Translations under genes and position numbers: made by a program
Shown here: one piece after another, positions 935 to 9,772 of the stretch
How the letters are laid out: each line of letters starts with the position of its first letter
How positions within the stretch are numbered: position 1 is the stretch's first letter
Virus record (IMG/VR): IMGVR_UViG_2606217100_000002
Origin: a virus
Lineage: Duplodnaviria; Heunggongvirae; Uroviricota; Caudoviricetes
DNA length: 9,772 bases
Direction: 5' to 3' (one strand)
Notes under the pieces: generated by a model
The model's input: only the letters and a program-made list of their open reading frames with translations
Told to the model about the DNA's origin: nothing
Database searches by the model: none

Positions 935-2620
935 GTGAATATAAACGTCGCCGAATTGTTAAATGGGAATTACATTCTGTTATTATTTGTGGTCCTCGCG
1001 CTTGGGCTATGTCTCGGAAAGTTACGACTTGGTTCGATCCAACTGGGTAATTCCATTGGCGTTTTAGTCGTATCGCTGTTATTAGGCCAACAACATTTCA
1101 GCATTAACACCGATGCGCTTAATCTTGGCTTTATGCTGTTTATTTTCTGCGTCGGGGTCGAAGCCGGACCGAACTTTTTTTCCATTTTTTTTCGCGATGG
1201 GAAAAATTACCTAATGTTAGCACTGGTGATGGTTGGCAGTGCGCTGGTGATCGCCTTAGGGTTAGGTAAGCTGTTTGGCTGGGATATTGGCCTGACGGCC
1301 GGTATGTTAGCAGGCTCTATGACGTCGACACCGGTTCTGGTCGGTGCTGGCGATACACTGCGTCATTTCGGCATGGAAAGCAGGCAGCTCTCACTGGCAC
1401 TGGATAATCTGAGCCTCGGGTATGCCTTAACCTATTTAATCGGTCTGGTGAGTTTGATTGTTGGTGCGCGTTACTTGCCGAAATTGCAGCATCAGGACTT
1501 ACAGACCAGCGCCCAGCAAATCGCCCGCGAACGTGGCCTGGACACTGATGCCAACCGTAAGGTTTATTTACCGGTGATCCGCGCCTATCGCGTCGGCCCG
1601 GAGCTGGTGGCCTGGACCGACGGCAAAAATCTGCGTGAACTGGGTATTTATCGACAAACCGGCTGCTACATTGAACGTATTCGACGTAACGGGATTCTGG
1701 CAAATCCAGACGGTGATGCCGTGCTACAAATGGGCGATGAAATAGCGTTGGTAGGCTATCCCGACGCCCATGCCCGACTCGATCCCAGCTTCCGTAACGG
1801 TAAAGAAGTTTTCGATCGTGACCTTCTCGACATGCGTATCGTCACTGAAGAAGTGGTCGTTAAAAACCATAACGCTGTAGGTAAACGTCTCGCACAACTG
1901 AAGTTGACCGATCACGGTTGCTTCCTTAACCGCGTCATTCGTAGCCAGATTGAGATGCCGATAGATGACAACGTCGTGCTTAACAAAGGTGACGTTTTAC
2001 AAGTCAGCGGTGATGCCCGTCGCGTAAAAACCATCGCCGATCGCATCGGCTTTATCTCGATTCACAGCCAGGTCACTGACCTGCTGGCATTTTGCGCCTT
2101 CTTTGTTATTGGGCTGATGATCGGGATGATCACCTTCCAGTTCAGCACATTCAGTTTCGGCATGGGGAACGCTGCCGGGTTGTTATTCGCCGGAATTATG
2201 CTGGGCTTTATGCGTGCTAACCACCCGACCTTCGGTTACATTCCGCAAGGTGCATTAAGCATGGTGAAAGAGTTCGGCTTGATGGTGTTTATGGCAGGCG
2301 TTGGTCTGAGCGCCGGTAGCGGTATTAATAACGGCCTGGGCGCGATTGGCGGTCAGATGTTGATTGCCGGATTAATTGTCAGTCTTGTGCCCGTGGTTAT
2401 CTGTTTCTTGTTCGGTGCTTATGTATTGCGAATGAACCGCGCACTGTTGTTCGGCGCAATGATGGGCGCACGCACCTGCGCGCCGGCAATGGAGATCATC
2501 AGTGATACAGCTCGCAGTAACATCCCTGCGCTGGGCTATGCGGGCACCTACGCAATCGCCAACGTCCTGCTGACGCTGGCAGGGACAATCATCGTCATGG
2601 TATGGCCAGGATTAGGATAA
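935..2620 (+). CDS. ybjL: putative transporter YbjL (AAE-family permease with two cytoplasmic RCK_C/TrkA-C-like regulatory domains)
   Basis: 561-aa ORF with GTG start at 935; hydrophobic N- and C-terminal permease halves flanking a soluble central region; sequence recognised as E. coli YbjL. Confidence 0.92.
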
Positions 2621-2696: not shown

Positions 2697-2775
2697 GCCA
2701 CTGCTTTTCTTTGATGTCCCCATTTTGTGGAGCCCATCAACCCCGCCATTTCGGTTCAAGGTTGATGGGTTTTTT
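2697..2775 (+). ncRNA. rybB: RybB small regulatory RNA (Hfq-dependent, sigma-E regulon, represses outer-membrane protein mRNAs)
   Basis: 79-nt sequence starting GCCACTGCTTTTCTTTGATGTCCCC (the known RybB seed) and ending in a 10-bp stem (CCCATCAACC 2733-2742 / GGTTGATGGG 2760-2769) plus T6 (2770-2775); located downstream of ybjL as in E. coli. Confidence 0.85.
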
Positions 2776-2833
2776 GTTGCCTGAAATTTATGCTATTTAA
2801 AATCATGATGTTAGAAGCACTGTTTTTTAACGA

Positions 2834-4265: not shown

Positions 4266-4747
4266 GACAGCAGCCCTCCCACCGTTTTACTGATATCGCT
4301 TAATGCAGACGTTGCCGTATCCTGCAGATTATTCAGTTGCGTACTGAGATCACCGAACATATCGGACAGGGATTCATCCACCCGTTTGAGCGACAGGGTG
4401 AACTCAATCCGGCGCGGCATACCGTCGCGGAAAAACTCCGTTTTAGTCAGATTCAGTCCCTCAATCACATACATGCCGTAAATCGTGCCACTGCCTTCAA
4501 TCAGGGGCCATGCTTTTCCCTGTTCTGCCATCTGCTCCAGAGCCAGCAACGACAGCCTGCCGCCCGTTATCTCCGGCATAAGAACACCAGAAAGCGTCAG
4601 CATGTCGTTGTCCGGTCCCAGAAACTGCGTGGACGGACGACGGTTTACCCGGCTGTTTGCCGCATGTCGCCAGCTGCGTTGATACTGCAGTTCCTGATAC
4701 GGAACGGTGCGCAGCATAAACACGTACAATCCCAGCACCATCATCAT
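4262..4747 (-). CDS. gpU: P2 gpU-like tail protein
   Basis: 161-aa ORF between the T remnant and D, matching P2 order T-U-D; ATGA overlaps at both ends (4744-4747 and 4262-4265). Confidence 0.78.
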   Translation of the reverse strand: MMMVLGLYVFMLRTVPYQELQYQRSWRHAANSRVNRRPSTQFLGPDNDMLTLSGVLMPEITGGRLSLLALEQMAEQGKAWPLIEGSGTIYGMYVIEGLNLTKTEFFRDGMPRRIEFTLSLKRVDESLSDMFGDLSTQLNNLQDTATSALSDISKTVGGLLS

Positions 4748-5994
4748 GCGTCGTAACCCCCCTGATCGCTGTAGTTACTCCTGGCTTTTGCCTTCAGCCT
4801 GCGTTCACGTTCATCAAGCTGGCGGGCCACCTCCCGCGCAATATCCTGCGCACTTTGTCCAGGCTGCGTCTGGATGATGATCTGCATCGGTGCCTCAATC
4901 CTGTAAACGGGCGGCACAGTGGCTGCGCGACTCACCATCGCTTCTCCACCTTTCGCGGGAAGTGCCAAAGGGTGCAACGGTGGAAGCTCTGCTGGCGCGG
5001 CAGCAACGCCCATCATTCCGGCAACAACGGCAGCCAGTGCAGCTGTATTTCTCCGGCTGGTCACATTTGCCGGGCCATTAACAATTTCCGGCCCGTTTTC
5101 ACCGACGATGCCAAACTGCCCGCGCGGGATATAGCCGCCGCTGTCATACATCCCCGCAAAGCCATATCCCCATGACGGAAAACCACCCGATGGCATCATC
5201 ACTTTACCGTCTGCATTCACCGTCGCAGTTTGCTGACGCGTCACGCTTTCCGGCAGTTTTGCCTTTGCGGCCTCTTTACTGACAATGCCGAGCTTCTCCA
5301 GCAACCAGGAAACGCCGGATTTCAGGGAGTCCAGCGGATGCATGACCATATTCAGCCCTTCCGCCAGTGCCTCCCCGAATCGTCGCCCCATTGCCGCTGC
5401 GCTCTGCAGTTCGGCAGAGGTCGACTTAACGGGCGTCAGCAGATCAGTAAACCAGCCCCACAGCGCCTGTACTTTGTCGCCAATCCACTGAAACACAGGC
5501 TTAAGTGGTTCGAATGCAGCACTGATGGGACCTGCCGCCGCTTTGAATCCTTCCACCACGCCACCGATAAATGCGGTGATGGGTTGCCAGTATTTCCAGA
5601 CAACCAGCGCCACGCCCGCCAGTGCAGTAACCACAAGACCTATCGGACTGAGCAGAGCACCTACCGCACCTGCTGCAACACGCCCGATCTCTGCAGTTGC
5701 GCTCATGACGTAATGCGGCAGTTTCTCTTTTGCTACCTCATTAATCGGTACACATGGCAGACAATGAATCTGTGCCAGAAAACCATCTACCAACGTTGAA
5801 TCTTCAGTCAGATCGGTAAGCAGCCAGATTTCTGGTGCGGTTAATAAATGAGGTTGAGCTGGGTTCAGCTTGTTCCGCAGAATCTGCACATTCATGCCCG
5901 CACGTTCTGCCAGTTGCACCAGATTGTGGCGCAGTGCGAATGCACGACAGGCTTCATCAAAATGTGGATGTTTGGAAACTTGGTAATCAAACAT
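4744..5994 (-). CDS. chimeric ORF: N-terminal ~100 aa of a 186 CII-like regulator fused in frame to the C-terminal ~300 aa of a tail tape-measure protein (gpT remnant)
   Basis: From ATG at 5994 (GAGGTG RBS upstream) the first ~100 aa ([19 protein letters not shown] ... [25 protein letters not shown]) resemble phage 186 CII family regulators; the remainder is Gly/Ala-rich hydrophobic sequence typical of the C-terminal part of P2-type tape-measure proteins and is followed by U and D. The tracked ORF start at 6048 would overlap the upstream gene. Confidence 0.62.
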
Positions 5995-6026
5995 GGTCGA
6001 CACCTCTGATGTATCCCAAAATGGAA

Positions 6027-6248
6027 CTAGTTGAATACAACATTGCAATCAGTAAGTGCATCAACGGTAAGAGCAGCAAGGTTGATCATTACCTTTTCTC
6101 TTTTCTTGTCTTTACGAAGACGATGCCGAGGAATGCGACCATCCGCCAACATATCGTTGATTGTGTCGATTGAAAGACCAGTAAGTTCGCTATAACGCTC
6201 GATTGTGACGTGTGGCGTATTCAGAGTTATTGAAATGTTAGGGGTCAT
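6027..6248 (-). CDS. Apl/Cox-like small DNA-binding protein (excisionase / lytic-switch regulator)
   Basis: 73-aa ORF from ATG at 6248 (AGGAG 10 nt upstream); first gene of the leftward operon, divergent from cI and followed by the cII-like gene (the apl position in 186); helix-turn-helix-like segment [25 protein letters not shown]. The tracked start at 6365 would overlap cI. Confidence 0.55.
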
Positions 6249-6298
6249 GATGCAACATCTCCTATTGGCTTGTGGTGAGCCTGTAGTAATCGTGACAA

Positions 6299-6314
6299 GT
6301 ACCCAATTGGGTAC
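6299..6314. promoter_or_regulatory. perfect 16-bp palindromic operator GTACCCAATTGGGTAC in the lysis/lysogeny switch
   Basis: Perfect inverted repeat in the cI-apl intergenic region, located at about +1 to +16 of the predicted leftward early promoter and 30 bp upstream of the cI start. Confidence 0.5.
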
Positions 6315-6321
6315 AAAACTG

Positions 6322-6350
6322 ATACTAGGATCGCAAAAGAGATATGTCAA
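6322..6350 (-). promoter_or_regulatory. early (lytic, pR/Pe-like) sigma-70 promoter driving apl/cox and the cII fusion
   Basis: On the minus strand TTGACA (plus coordinates 6345-6350, overlapping the cI start codon), a 17-nt spacer, then TAGTAT (6322-6327); predicted start near 6314 at the edge of the palindrome. Confidence 0.5.
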
Positions 6351-6940
6351 CATCAAAGTACCCAAGTGAGATCAAAATAAATCCCAATAAAGGTGGTAAG
6401 GCTGCGATTGAGCGATTAGTCGAAGCCTATGGCTTTACGACACGACAGGCTTTAGCTGATCACTTGGAAGTATCAAAAAGCACACTAGCGAACAGGTATT
6501 TGCGGGATACATTTCCTGCTGACTGGATAATCCAATGTGCTCTTGAAACAGGAACCTCCCTCAAATGGTTAACTACCGGACAAGGCCTTAAGCAAAGCTC
6601 GCTGACAGCAGCTACAGAAGAGCTTGTTAAGTTTCGCCTTGCCGCAGGCAAAATGATTGAAGACGGTTCATATGTCTTCGATTCATCATTTCTTCCTGCA
6701 AACCTTTCATCACCAATTGTTGTTCAGGATGGACTCGTCACATACATTTGTGATCAAAAATTTTCTGAAGTACTTGATGGAAACTGGTTAATCAATATCG
6801 ACGGAACCTATTCCATTCGAAAAATCACAAGGCTTCCTAAAGGAATGATTAAAATTACAACAGCAGAGAATAGCTTTGAATGTGCATTTTCTGATATTGA
6901 AGTGGTTGCTTGTATAAGAAGTACAATAGTCTCGAATTAA
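6344..6940 (+). CDS. cI: phage CI-type immunity repressor (186 CI-like: N-terminal HTH plus C-terminal oligomerisation domain)
   Basis: 198-aa ORF; N-terminal helix-turn-helix region (GFTTRQALADHLEVSKSTLANRYL) typical of the phage CI repressor family; divergent from the apl/cox-like gene and upstream of int as in P2/186. Confidence 0.8.
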   Translation: MSTSKYPSEIKINPNKGGKAAIERLVEAYGFTTRQALADHLEVSKSTLANRYLRDTFPADWIIQCALETGTSLKWLTTGQGLKQSSLTAATEELVKFRLAAGKMIEDGSYVFDSSFLPANLSSPIVVQDGLVTYICDQKFSEVLDGNWLINIDGTYSIRKITRLPKGMIKITTAENSFECAFSDIEVVACIRSTIVSN

Positions 6941-6960
6941 TATAGTAAAAGGATTTTAAA

Positions 6961-8637
6961 ATGAATTCATTTGCCATCGTTATACTCTTATTAGCATTTC
7001 TCGCCCCTGTTCTAGCTGTAATATTATTTAAACAAAGTAAAAAACACAAAGCGGCTATAGATAACCTGACAGCTAACAACATAGCCCTTTCTAACCAACT
7101 GATTGAAAATCAAGAAAAACTAGCACAGACCGTACGAGAATTATCAGAGCTTGAAGGGCGAGCAGCACCATTGTGGCAATACGAAGAATTGCACAGCGCA
7201 GTAATGGATGCAGAGAATAAGATAAAAAATGCGGACTCAATAGCCAAGCAAAAAATAGATGAAGCCCAAATTAAGGCGGCTAAAACAGTAAACGAAGCAA
7301 ATTATCAAGCTCAGATGACAATAAGCAACGCTAATAGCGAAGCTATAGCAATCACCAAAGACGCTCGCGATGCACGCCTGAAAGCCAAAGAACGTCTTGA
7401 TAATGCTAATAATAAAGCAAATGAGCTAATCTCAAATGCTAATGACAATGCAGTAAAAATTATTTCTGATGCAGAAGAAAGAGCAAAGGAGATTGCTGGT
7501 TCAGCATATGAAGCTAAAGAGTTTGCAGAAAAATATGAAGCAGTTGCAAAATCAATGAAAAATAAAATTGAAGGTTATGGTGATGAATGGATCATCCCTA
7601 ACCGTAGTGTACTTGATGAGCTGGCAGAAAATTATGAATTTACAGATGCAGGCAAGGAATTACAAAAAGCCAGAGAGTTAACCAAATCATTAATAAAAAC
7701 TAATAAAGCTGCTTCGTGTGATTATGTTGAGCAAAACAGGCGTAATACTGCCATAAACTTTGTTTTGGATGCCTTCAATGGAAGAGTTGACAGTATTTTA
7801 TCAAAAGTCAAACACAACAATTTTGGAAAACTTTCCCAAGAAATAAAAGATGCATTTCAACTAGTAAATTACAATGGCTCTGCCTTTAGGTCCGCAAAAA
7901 TAAGTGACATCTATCTTCAGGCAAGACTCAACGAGCTAAAATGGGGTGTAGCAGTTAATGAAATTATGCTCGAAGAAAAAGAAGAGCAAAGAAGGATTAA
8001 AGAACAGCTTCGTGAAGAGGAAAGAGCTCGTAGAGAATATGAAAAAGCGATAAAAGAAGCTGAAAAAGAAGAAAAAGCTATTCAGCAAGCTATAAATAAA
8101 GCAACGAAAGAACTTATGCTTGCAAATGAAGAACAACGCTTAGCTTTAGAGCAAAAAATAGCTGAACTACAGTTAAAATATGAAGAAGCTGAAGCTAAAA
8201 ATCAACGAGCTATTTCTATGGCTCAACAAACCAGATCAGGCTACGTCTATATCATTAGTAATATTGGTTCATTTGGCGAAGATGTATATAAAATTGGAAT
8301 GACACGCCGCCTTGAACCACTTGATCGTGTTCGTGAACTCGGAGATGCTAGTGTTCCTTTTTCGTTCGATGTTCATGCGATGATTTATAGTGATGATGCA
8401 CCATCATTAGAAAACCATCTGCATAAAGTTTTCAACGAAAAGCAGGTCAATAAAATTAACTCACGAAAAGAGTTTTTTAACGTAAATTTAAAAGAAATCA
8501 AATCAGTTATTGAAGACATGAACATCAACGCCCACTGGACAATGTTTGCAGAGGCGAAAGAATATAGAGAGTCTCTAGCTATTGAGCAGGAGCGCAAAGC
8601 AGCCACTTCCGCCAACGATGAACTACATGTTGCTTAG
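6961..8637 (+). CDS. cargo (moron) protein: N-terminal transmembrane anchor, extended coiled coils, DUF4041-like middle region and C-terminal T5orf172/GIY-YIG-type nuclease domain; candidate anti-phage defence effector
   Basis: 558-aa ORF with AAAGGA RBS 8 nt upstream of ATG, 20 bp after the cI stop. Residues 5-23 hydrophobic (FAIVILLLAFLAPVLAVILF) followed by KQSKKHK. Two long K/E/A-rich coiled-coil stretches. C-terminus GYVYIISN...YKIGMTRR...RVRELGDASVPFSFDVHAMIYSDDAPSLENHLHKVF...RKEFFNV fits the GIY-(10-11)-YIG, Arg, Glu pattern of T5orf172/GIY-YIG nucleases. Markedly AT-rich relative to the flanking prophage genes. Confidence 0.6.
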   Translation: MNSFAIVILLLAFLAPVLAVILFKQSKKHKAAIDNLTANNIALSNQLIENQEKLAQTVRELSELEGRAAPLWQYEELHSAVMDAENKIKNADSIAKQKIDEAQIKAAKTVNEANYQAQMTISNANSEAIAITKDARDARLKAKERLDNANNKANELISNANDNAVKIISDAEERAKEIAGSAYEAKEFAEKYEAVAKSMKNKIEGYGDEWIIPNRSVLDELAENYEFTDAGKELQKARELTKSLIKTNKAASCDYVEQNRRNTAINFVLDAFNGRVDSILSKVKHNNFGKLSQEIKDAFQLVNYNGSAFRSAKISDIYLQARLNELKWGVAVNEIMLEEKEEQRRIKEQLREEERARREYEKAIKEAEKEEKAIQQAINKATKELMLANEEQRLALEQKIAELQLKYEEAEAKNQRAISMAQQTRSGYVYIISNIGSFGEDVYKIGMTRRLEPLDRVRELGDASVPFSFDVHAMIYSDDAPSLENHLHKVFNEKQVNKINSRKEFFNVNLKEIKSVIEDMNINAHWTMFAEAKEYRESLAIEQERKAATSANDELHVA

Positions 8638-8719: not shown

Positions 8720-9772
8720 ATGGCAGTACGAAAACTAACCACAGGGAAATGGCTTTGCGAATGTTACCCCGCCGGACGAAGTGGGCGTCGTGTGCGTAAA
8801 CAATTCGCTACCAAAGGCGAAGCACTGGCTTTTGAGCGCCACACGATGGAAGAAACCGAAGCAAAGCCCTGGCTGGGTGAATCAGTGGATCGTCGAACAC
8901 TGAAAGACGTGGTTGAGCTATGGTTCAAACTACATGGTAAATCTCTGACAGCTGGGCAGCATGTCTATGACAAATTGCTGTTGATGGTTGACGCTCTGGG
9001 CAATCCTCTTGCAACCGATCTCACCTCTAAAATGTTTGCCCACTATCGAGATAAACGCCTGACAGGCGAGATCTACTTCAGCGAGAAATGGAAGAAAGGA
9101 GCAAGCCCGGTCACCATTAACCTGGAGCAAAGCTATCTAAGTAGTGTTTTTAGCGAACTATCCCGTCTGGGCGAATGGTCGTATCCGAACCCACTGGAGA
9201 ACATGCGAAAATTCACCATCGCAGAAAAAGAGATGGCATGGCTTACCCATGAGCAGATTGTTGAATTGCTGGCTGATTGCAAACGTCAGGACCCAATTCT
9301 GGCACTGGTAGTTAAGATATGCTTAAGCACAGGCGCACGCTGGCGTGAAGCCGTAAATCTTACCCGCTCACAGGTGACCAAATACCGAATTACCTTTGTC
9401 AGAACGAAGGGGAAGAAAAACAGAAGCATCCCTATCAGTAAAGAGCTTTACGAAGAGATCATGGCGCTTGATGGGTTCAATTTCTTCACAGACTGCTATT
9501 TTCAATTTTTATCCGTGATGGAAAAAACGTCTATCGTGCTCCCTCGCGGTCAACTCACACACGTTCTGCGCCATACGTTTGCGGCGCACTTCATGATGTC
9601 GGGTGGAAACATTCTGGCCTTACAAAAAATTCTCGGACACCACGATATAAAAATGACTATGCGTTACGCACATCTGGCACCGGATCATCTAGAAACGGCG
9701 CTCCGTTTCAATCCTCTGGCAACGCTACCAAGTGGCGACAAAGTGGCGGCAGCGGTTGGCATTACCCCGTAA
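8720..9772 (+). CDS. int: P2-type tyrosine integrase (site-specific recombinase)
   Basis: 350-aa ORF; N-terminus MAVRKL.. and overall sequence resemble P2 Int; catalytic-region motifs LSTGARWREA (Arg), HVLRHTFAAHF (His-x-x-Arg) and MTMRYAHLAP (Tyr nucleophile); last gene before the presumed attachment site. Confidence 0.93.
   Translation: MAVRKLTTGKWLCECYPAGRSGRRVRKQFATKGEALAFERHTMEETEAKPWLGESVDRRTLKDVVELWFKLHGKSLTAGQHVYDKLLLMVDALGNPLATDLTSKMFAHYRDKRLTGEIYFSEKWKKGASPVTINLEQSYLSSVFSELSRLGEWSYPNPLENMRKFTIAEKEMAWLTHEQIVELLADCKRQDPILALVVKICLSTGARWREAVNLTRSQVTKYRITFVRTKGKKNRSIPISKELYEEIMALDGFNFFTDCYFQFLSVMEKTSIVLPRGQLTHVLRHTFAAHFMMSGGNILALQKILGHHDIKMTMRYAHLAPDHLETALRFNPLATLPSGDKVAAAVGITP
9733..9754 (+). 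repeat. 22-bp direct repeat, right copy (TGGCGACAAAGTGGCGGCAGCG), inside the 3' end of int
   Basis: 21 of 22 identity with 2834-2855 in the same orientation; encodes int residues ..GDKVAAA..; 18 nt before the int stop. Confidence 0.5.

Follow-up and report, generated by a model that had tools for sequence, protein, structure and literature searches.

How a short stretch of DNA between two opposed phage genes might decide between lytic and lysogenic transcription, and which protein would recognise it, is the question raised by the 95-bp gap between cox and cI in the window considered here, i.e. the whole stretch of 9,772 bp that was analysed. Within this gap lies a perfect 16-bp palindrome, and the original prediction read the region as a compact P2/186-like switch with face-to-face promoters and a single operator shared by both. 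To answer the question it is necessary to establish what kind of element carries the gap, where its two promoters are likely to lie, whether the palindrome is inherited with the repressor CI or with Cox, and whether it stands alone.

Gene content and origin of the element

The window belongs to an E. coli chromosome and contains a prophage remnant between rybB/ybjL and rcdA (Table 1). Up to about position 5662 the remnant consists of a P2-like right prophage end comprising ogr, D, U and a portion of the tape-measure gene, which is joined to codon 112 of cII at a deletion junction placed at about 5662/5663. The view that this is a remnant, already part of the original prediction, is borne out by that deletion, which fuses cII codons 1-112 to the tape-measure gene. 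To the right of 5662, the identity with Escherichia phage vB_EcoM-813R9 is 99.9%, and over 5900-7000 it reaches 100% with this phage and 94.6% with Klebsiella phage KP12. The gene order, cII-cox on one side and cI-(PD-Lambda-1)-int on the other, matches the 186 map: the cI-int operon is opposed to a lytic operon led by cox and cII, with cII truncated and PD-Lambda-1 inserted. By this gene content the element is a 186-type prophage that lost its middle by deletion. Of 5426 complete E. coli genomes, 173 have the 221-bp switch at a coverage of at least 80%, and it is also found in Klebsiella phages and in many viral contigs.

The product of cI shows both domains of the 186 repressor, a helix-turn-helix N-terminal domain (Pfam Phage_CI_repr, 8e-32) and a C-terminal oligomerisation domain (Phage_CI_C, 3.5e-27), and it matches the 186 CI structure PDB 2FJR (E=6.7e-27) as well as 2FKD. 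The integrase is 54% identical to 186 Int. The 73-aa product of the cox gene is annotated as Cox in ON470620 and has no Pfam match; its gene occupies the position equivalent to that of 186 apl. The defence gene between cI and int was recognised as PD-Lambda-1 by PADLOC (E=3.4e-120), and its product carries the Pfam domains DUF4041 and T5orf172.

Table 1. Features of the window. For the operator-like sites, the last two columns give positions relative to the predicted pR start (6314 in the window) and those of the corresponding right, central and left sites of 186, the latter deduced from the annotated 57-bp CI-binding region of the GenBank record.
Feature	Position	Strand	Description	Relative to start, window	Relative to start, 186 (deduced)
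ybjL	935-2620		Host gene		
rybB	2700-2778		Host sRNA gene; sole Rfam match reported		
cII-tape-measure fusion ORF	4744-5994	-	In-frame fusion of cII residues 1-112 with a C-terminal portion of the tail tape-measure protein		
cox/apl-like gene	6027-6248	-	73 aa; first gene of the lytic operon		
pL equivalent (putative)	6230-6258	+	-35 TTGAAA 6230-6235, in cox codons 5-7; 17-bp spacer; -10 CAACAT 6253-6258		
Inter-promoter block	6259-6298	No strand	Contains CTATTGGCTTGTGGTGAG and TAATCGTGAC; kept with cox across different CI types; holds the cox ribosome-binding site		
O1	6299-6314	No strand	GTACCCAATTGGGTAC; perfect palindrome, proposed primary CI operator	+1 to +16	-11 to +6 (right)
pR equivalent	6322-6350	-	-35 TTGACA 6350-6345; 17-bp spacer; -10 TAGTAT 6327-6322; would transcribe cox and the truncated cII		
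O2 (tentative)	6329-6344	No strand	GATCGCAAAAGAGATA; exactly occupies the 17-bp pR spacer; includes the cI ribosome-binding region	-15 to -30	-14 to -29 (central)
cI	6344-6940	+	198-aa 186-type repressor; Phage_CI_repr and Phage_CI_C		
O3	6358-6373	No strand	GTACCCAAGTGAGATC; second operator-like site, in cI codons 5-10, upstream of the pR -35	-44 to -59	-35 to -51 (left)
PD-Lambda-1 defence gene	6961-8637	+	558 aa; between cI and int, same orientation		
int	8720-9772	+	Integrase; last gene of the lysogenic operon		

Two predicted convergent promoters

The leftward promoter, TTGACA-17-TAGTAT, agrees with the consensus at 10 of 12 positions and is the sole sigma-70-like match in the interval 5900-7000. 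Promoter-like matches in this interval are not above chance (one found, against a mean of 3.2 in shuffled sequences), and the credibility of pR comes not from the scan but from the quality of the match, from its conservation in relatives and from its correspondence to the annotated pR of phage 186. Its hexamers are kept in the relatives, with only hexamer-compatible changes, e.g. TTGGCA and TAATAT. The -35 overlaps the cI ATG (6344-6346) by 2 nt, and leftward transcription is predicted to start at about 6314-6315; as G6314 is the first purine to occur 7-8 nt past the -10, the distance appropriate for a start, the palindrome would begin at about +1 of the leftward transcript. Both features, the near-consensus promoter with its -35 over the cI start codon and the palindrome at its predicted start, had been recognised in the original prediction.

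The promoter of cI is best approached through 186. The annotated record places the -35 of 186 pL 13 nt inside apl and its -10 at 5 nt before the apl ATG; when the two switches are aligned on the apl/cox start codon, this mapped promoter (TTGCGA-17-CATGAT) falls exactly over 6230-6258, column for column, and one related contig, L088, has TTGATA-17-CAAAAT in the same position. The -10 of the window, CAACAT, matches the consensus at only three of six positions and was missed by the consensus scan, and the conservation of the pL hexamers is not independent evidence, because they overlap cox codons and the cox ribosome-binding site. A pL equivalent in this place, with a predicted rightward start at about 6264-6267, would converge with pR and leave about 50 bp between the two starts, which falls inside the 40-60 bp that reportedly separate the face-to-face promoters of P2-like phages (PMC7498355).

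The block between the two predicted promoters (6259-6298) is kept with cox and not with cI. The Apl sites of 186 lie between pR and pL (annotated record; PMC7498355), and by analogy with Apl the block is likely to be the region bound by Cox. The same block also contains the motif TGtAGTAAT (TGTAGTAAT, 6282-6290).

Conservation of the palindrome and its inheritance with CI

The palindrome, GTACCCAATTGGGTAC at 6299-6314, is a perfect 8+8 inverted repeat, and the window, 9772 bp long, has no other perfect palindrome of 16 bp. When the window was simulated with a first-order Markov model, such a palindrome arose somewhere in 18% of the simulated windows, and the chance of finding one within the 95-bp cox-cI gap is about 0.002; for this exact 16-mer the expectation is 0.01 occurrences per window. 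This 16-mer is absent from the papers in the literature searched. It has 18 matches in IMG/VR, nine of which are the same switch and one a diverged relative, L017, while the remaining eight lie in unrelated contigs such as L018, a high-GC contig without CI. Eight unrelated matches are about the number expected by chance for a collection of that size.

Conservation was followed in a set of 80 viral contigs encoding CI relatives, 64 of which share at least 80% of the first 80 CI residues. The footprint of O1 was taken from the 37 unique switch sequences among those sharing at least 80% of the CI N-terminal domain, a group in which the CI C-terminal domains diverge down to about 30% identity. The resulting consensus is GT(a/c)CCCAA(a/t)(t/c)GGG(a/g/t)AC: little or no variation is seen at positions 1, 2, 4-8, 11-13, 15 and 16, whose counterparts at 3, 9 and 14 are variable, and the 4-10 nt flanking each side are free to vary. 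A perfectly symmetric O1 occurs in 8 of the 64 related contigs, every one with a CI at least 99% identical to that of the window. In these alignments perfect symmetry is a trait of one E. coli variant, and the conserved element is an imperfect inverted repeat.

Two kinds of relatives bear on which protein the site belongs to. In L017, where CI is 52% and Cox 82% identical to the proteins of the window and the flanks have diverged, the exact 16-mer is retained. In three E. coli prophages (L102-L104), Cox is 100% identical to that of the window and CI is a different one, and from about 6295 rightward these prophages have ATCACAnnTCGG-type repeats where the window has the palindrome. The same Cox, another CI and no palindrome indicate that O1 is inherited with the DNA-binding domain of CI and not with Cox. 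O1 is also identical at 9 of 16 positions, including CAATTGGG, to the CI site at the centre of 186 pR, TCTCTCAATTGGGAGA, with which it has CAATTG.G in common. That the palindrome is a repressor operator, as had been proposed, is supported by this comparative evidence, i.e. by its co-variation with CI and not with Cox, and the palindrome is most likely the main CI operator of a 186-type switch. Operator and CI N-terminal domain appear to travel as a module, which fits a role of the site as the immunity determinant.

Additional operator-like sites and their spacing

In a weight matrix built from the O1 variants alone, the second-ranking site in the whole window is O3 (11.05 bits, about 1.5e-5 per position), with its centre 59 bp from that of O1. 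It lies within a 22-nt direct repeat of the O1 region, AAGTACCCAAGTGAGATCAAAA (6356-6377, 82% identity), and L017 keeps the C.CAA.TGGG pattern at O3 despite a different peptide (KLTNGI versus KYPSEI). Because O3 sits in coding DNA, part of its conservation reflects constraint at the protein level. The third candidate, O2, is identical at 10 of 16 positions to O3 and at 10 of 16 to the central operator of 186, which has the same place in the spacer. It is graded as tentative because it is not significant by the O1 weight matrix (rank 226) and because part of it, GGATCGCA, is also kept in switches with a different CI; its sequence may be ancestral spacer rather than operator. The palindrome is probably not the lone operator, the sites pointing to at least two, with O2 as a probable weak third. 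The original prediction of an operator at the palindrome is thus retained for O1, but it had recognised only one of the sites, O3 and the probable weak site in the pR spacer having to be added.

The centres of O1, O2 and O3 are 30 and 29 bp apart. Three copies of GTyCACAnnTGGGwAs are found in L088 and L090 at offsets 0, 30 and 59, three ATCACAnnTCGG copies in L102 and L103, operator-like sites in 30-bp steps in SopEPhi, and repeats 62 bp apart on both sides of pR in Fels-2; in L088, L102 and SopEPhi a clear middle site occupies the offset of O2. Between O1 and the L088-type operator, most of the difference is concentrated in one half-site. Measured from the predicted start (Table 1), the central site would be placed as in 186, and the outer sites would each lie about one helical turn farther out.

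No distal operators resembling FL or FR of 186 were found at five or fewer mismatches within 1.5 kb on either side of the switch, and there was no other high O1-matrix score elsewhere in the window, where weak or divergent sites are possible. An FL-like site in or past cI was sought with the same mismatch limit and distance and with the weight matrix, and nothing was obtained. As an FR-like candidate, GTATCCCAAAATGGAAC (6011-6027, at the cII-cox junction) was set aside, since it ranks 13 by the weight matrix and is present whatever the CI type; it is probably part of a conserved pE/cox-cII module. Its location is that of FR in 186.

Alternative readings of the palindrome

The main alternative concerns the cI promoter. 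According to the original prediction, cI would be driven by an extended -10, TGtAGTAAT (6282-6290). Its start would then be at about 6297, the two transcripts would overlap by only about 18 nt, and the palindrome would be a single operator shared by both starts. The motif is indeed there, its ..GTAAT part is largely kept among the relatives, some of which have TGTAAT (5/6 to the consensus), and the conserved TAATCGTGAC block persists across CI types. This block, however, is inherited with cox and not with cI; moreover, the TG of the extended -10 is gone in most relatives (CCGGTAGTAAT, CCGTTTGTAAT; GGAATGATAAG in L017), no variant has an A at -11, and no -35 is recognisable. The experimentally mapped pL of 186 aligns instead at 6230-6258, about 30 bp further left, and an overlap of about 18 nt contrasts with the 40-60 bp reported between the promoters of P2-like phages (PMC7498355). 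A cI promoter at TGtAGTAAT is accordingly regarded as unlikely, and the one at 6230-6258 is preferred.

It is very improbable that the palindrome is a site for a Cox/Apl-like excisionase-repressor and not for CI. O1 does lie in the interval equivalent to the Apl sites of 186 (pR -6 to pL), just past the pR -10 (PMC7498355), but the three prophages with an identical Cox lack it and have other repeats that accompany their different CI; the targets of such recombination directionality factors are short direct repeats spaced by about 10-11 bp and not inverted repeats of 16 bp (PMC7498355), and O3, upstream of the -35 and within cI, is outside the pR-pL interval where 186 Apl binds. Even less credible is an action of the palindrome as RNA, in which a 5'-terminal stem-loop (GUACCC/AAUU/GGGUAC) would stabilise or regulate the cox transcript and would also be present in the cI leader. 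A hairpin is predicted in both transcripts and its three G-C pairs are invariant, yet protein contacts would explain the invariant pairs equally well, the fold z-scores (-1.2 and -0.9) are unremarkable, and pair 3:14 is non-Watson-Crick in 33 of the 37 variants with no compensating changes, so that most relatives are left with a weak 3-bp core; in addition, O3 is unable to form this hairpin, and the switch has no Rfam family match. Chance alone does yield perfect 16-bp palindromes, as seen in the 18% of simulated windows and in the unrelated contigs that hold about half of the 18 exact IMG/VR matches. A functionless origin is nevertheless close to negligible in probability for a palindrome that sits in a 95-bp regulatory gap, has a core conserved in 37 variants whose flanks are variable and a second copy at a distance of 59 bp, and is matched by analogous sites at the same positions in related switches.

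Comparison with other phage switches

The comparison with 186 is based on its annotated GenBank record, in which pR lies 15 bp from the cI ATG, the three CI sites take up the 57 bp that begin at the ATG and end shortly beyond the -10, and the Apl sites extend from pR -6 to pL. The window resembles 186 in having a strong pR that adjoins the cI start codon, a putative pL that would converge from the same position relative to the apl/cox ATG, multiple inverted-repeat operators of 16-17 bp over pR, one of them in the spacer (predicted in the case of the window), and a homologous CI with both domains, the identity being only about 32%. It differs in that its best operator is found past the -10, at +1 to +16, and not in the spacer, the centres of its sites are separated by about 30 and 29 bp where 186 has about 21 bp (20-21), and its predicted start sites are about 50 bp apart instead of 62 bp. 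The pR -35 of the window overlaps the cI ATG and its upstream operator lies in cI codons 5-10, whereas the sites of 186 end at the ATG. The Cox-like protein of the window shows no detectable similarity to Apl families, cII is truncated in this copy and the remainder of the lytic operon is deleted, and the window has an extra defence gene between cI and int. In 186, the C-terminal domain of CI assembles a 14-mer wheel that wraps DNA, and the distal operators FL and FR, about 300 bp on either side, loop to pR; none of these distal sites is detectable in the window. The wheel-and-loop mechanism of 186 is not simply transferable to the window because of the 29-30 bp spacing and the absence of FL/FR-like sites. 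Common to both phages would be the general logic by which CI, from three pR operators in the case of 186 and with convergent pR and pL, relieves interference (PMC3675496; PMC7498355).

With P2 the window would share face-to-face early and lysogenic promoters, and it shares a repressor-int operon opposed to a cox-led lytic operon, and the P2-like character of the tail and late genes in the remnant. The C protein of P2 is a small repressor of another family, whose two binding sites are direct repeats on either side of the Pe -10 (PMC2995052, PMC1904268), whereas the repressor of the window is of the 186 type and its sites are inverted repeats with dyad symmetry. Judged by the CI domains, the match to 2FJR and the dyad sites, the switch is of the 186 type (Peduoviridae) and not of the P2 type; of the P2/186-like switch originally envisaged, the 186 part stands, the convergent promoters are supported by comparison, and the P2 part does not stand.

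The layout of the window is found again in Fels-2, SopEPhi and L088, where repeats flank pR 59-62 bp apart, with 30-bp steps in SopEPhi and L088. Among the Felsduovirus-type switches (Fels-2, SopEPhi, the Klebsiella phages KP12 and 4LV2017, and vB_EcoM-813R9), operator sequences differ between types, and no paper was found that maps the operators of any of these five phages. It is conceivable, if rather doubtful, that in this switch and in Felsduovirus-type switches the CI dimers of the 186 family are placed three helical turns apart (30 and 29 bp) instead of two as in 186, with the strongest site at the start of transcription and the outermost encoded in the N-terminal arm of CI. If this were true, the three-turn spacing would mean that protein and DNA are arranged differently on the CI oligomer, the operator would evolve coupled with the peptide that it encodes, and half-sites would change between a TTCACA and a TACCCA form in the course of immunity diversification. 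In the 186 wheel study, the authors reportedly speculated on a different geometry at three-turn spacing.

Proposed mechanism and significance

The model as a whole, a 186-type switch with CI at O1 and O3 and probably O2 and with convergent pR and pL, held in a deleted prophage, is considered quite probable. By homology with 186 (PMC3675496), CI would be expected to bind here and to act cooperatively or form a wheel, transcription to begin at the predicted starts and to be subject to interference, and the locus to confer immunity. In this model the strong pR (6350-6322) would fire leftward into cox and the truncated cII, and the weak pL (6230-6258), partly within cox, would fire rightward into cI, PD-Lambda-1 and int. 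CI dimers would bind the pseudo-palindromic 16-bp sites through their N-terminal helix-turn-helix domain, with O1 as the best site, O3 upstream of the -35 and O2, probably weak, in the spacer, and this binding is likely to be cooperative through the 186-like C-terminal domain. Occupancy by CI would exclude or trap RNA polymerase at pR and so turn lytic transcription off; the loss of convergent transcription would in turn relieve interference on pL, and cI expression would be sustained. Cox presumably binds the cox-linked block at 6259-6298.

In the remnant, expression of cI, PD-Lambda-1 and int would be maintained by the circuit, which would also repress incoming phages with the same operators. 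With CII truncated and the lytic genes lost, maintaining CI, together with the defence gene and the integrase, and repressing matching phages would be all that the circuit is able to do. The locus is most likely an uncharacterised member of the well-understood family of 186-type switches and not a new mechanism; it is mildly unusual in the 30-bp phasing of its operators, in having an operator within the repressor coding sequence and in its lack of detectable distal sites.

The current understanding of such switches is left unchanged by these findings. Knowledge of the operators would nevertheless indicate which P2/186-like phages a lysogen or a remnant should exclude. The switch presumably drives PD-Lambda-1 together with cI, which may explain why the remnant has been retained, and, as a natural variant of the 186 paradigm, it offers a test case for the generality of the model of CI wheel and looping.

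Operator half-sites and CI proteins

In a comparison of L088 and L090 (two related switches with operator types of their own) around the cI start with FL and FR, the distal flanking CI operators of phage 186 (L003), the CI operator half-sites of the family look, from their sequences, like two interchangeable forms. One form, TTCACA, is present in FL and FR of 186 and in the left half-sites of L088. The other, TACCCA or TCTCCCA, is found in O1, the 16-bp palindrome proposed as the primary CI operator of the window, and, in 186, at the central CI site of pR; the L088 sites combine one half of each form (GTTCACAnnTGGGTAC). The cI genes of the related prophages L092–L101 and L102–L104 code for proteins of about 300 aa that carry two Phage_CI_repr-like helix-turn-helix domains in tandem; of these, the second is nearly identical to the N-terminal domain of the window CI. 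These proteins are accompanied by three ATCACAnnTCGG repeats over pR, spaced 20 and 29 bp, and in L102–L104 the two-domain CI occurs alongside a Cox (the apl-like first protein of the lytic operon) identical to that of the window.

Operator-like sequences elsewhere

At the cII–cox junction, GTATCCCAAAATGGAAC is similar to the operator core, and in phage 186 the corresponding place is occupied by FR. As this sequence is kept in loci whose CI types are unrelated, it is probably part of the CII-dependent pE promoter region or of the cox–cII module. The 16-mer of O1 is also present in an unrelated viral contig (L021, 9380–9480), amid several close-set GGGTACC/GTACCCAA repeats, which look like iterons or operators of another system.

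Organization of the remnant

Features of the window
Feature	Position	Strand	Evidence or remark
RybB sRNA gene, full-length	2700-2778	+	Rfam, 105 bits
Chimeric ORF, 416 aa, downstream of cox	4744-5994	-	Junction ~5662/5663
GTATCCCAAAATGGAAC	6011-6027		cII-cox junction
AAATGAATTCATTT, 14-bp perfect palindrome	6959-6972		Centred on PD-Lambda-1 start codon
PD-Lambda-1 anti-phage defence gene, 558 aa	6961-8637	+	PADLOC E=3.4e-120; Pfam DUF4041 + T5orf172

Through the internal deletion of the prophage, codons 1–112 of cII are now fused in frame with the C-terminal portion of the tail tape-measure protein. Everything from cII codon 113 to mid tape-measure has gone, including the genes for replication, lysis and the head and most of those for the tail. 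Since the ogr end of the prophage borders host DNA at rybB, the 3' end of this gene probably overlaps the phage attachment site. The PD-Lambda-1 gene lies between cI and int, all three sharing one orientation, and is therefore presumably driven by the lysogenic promoter; the palindrome at its start codon is the second longest of the window. This defence gene may explain the retention of the remnant.
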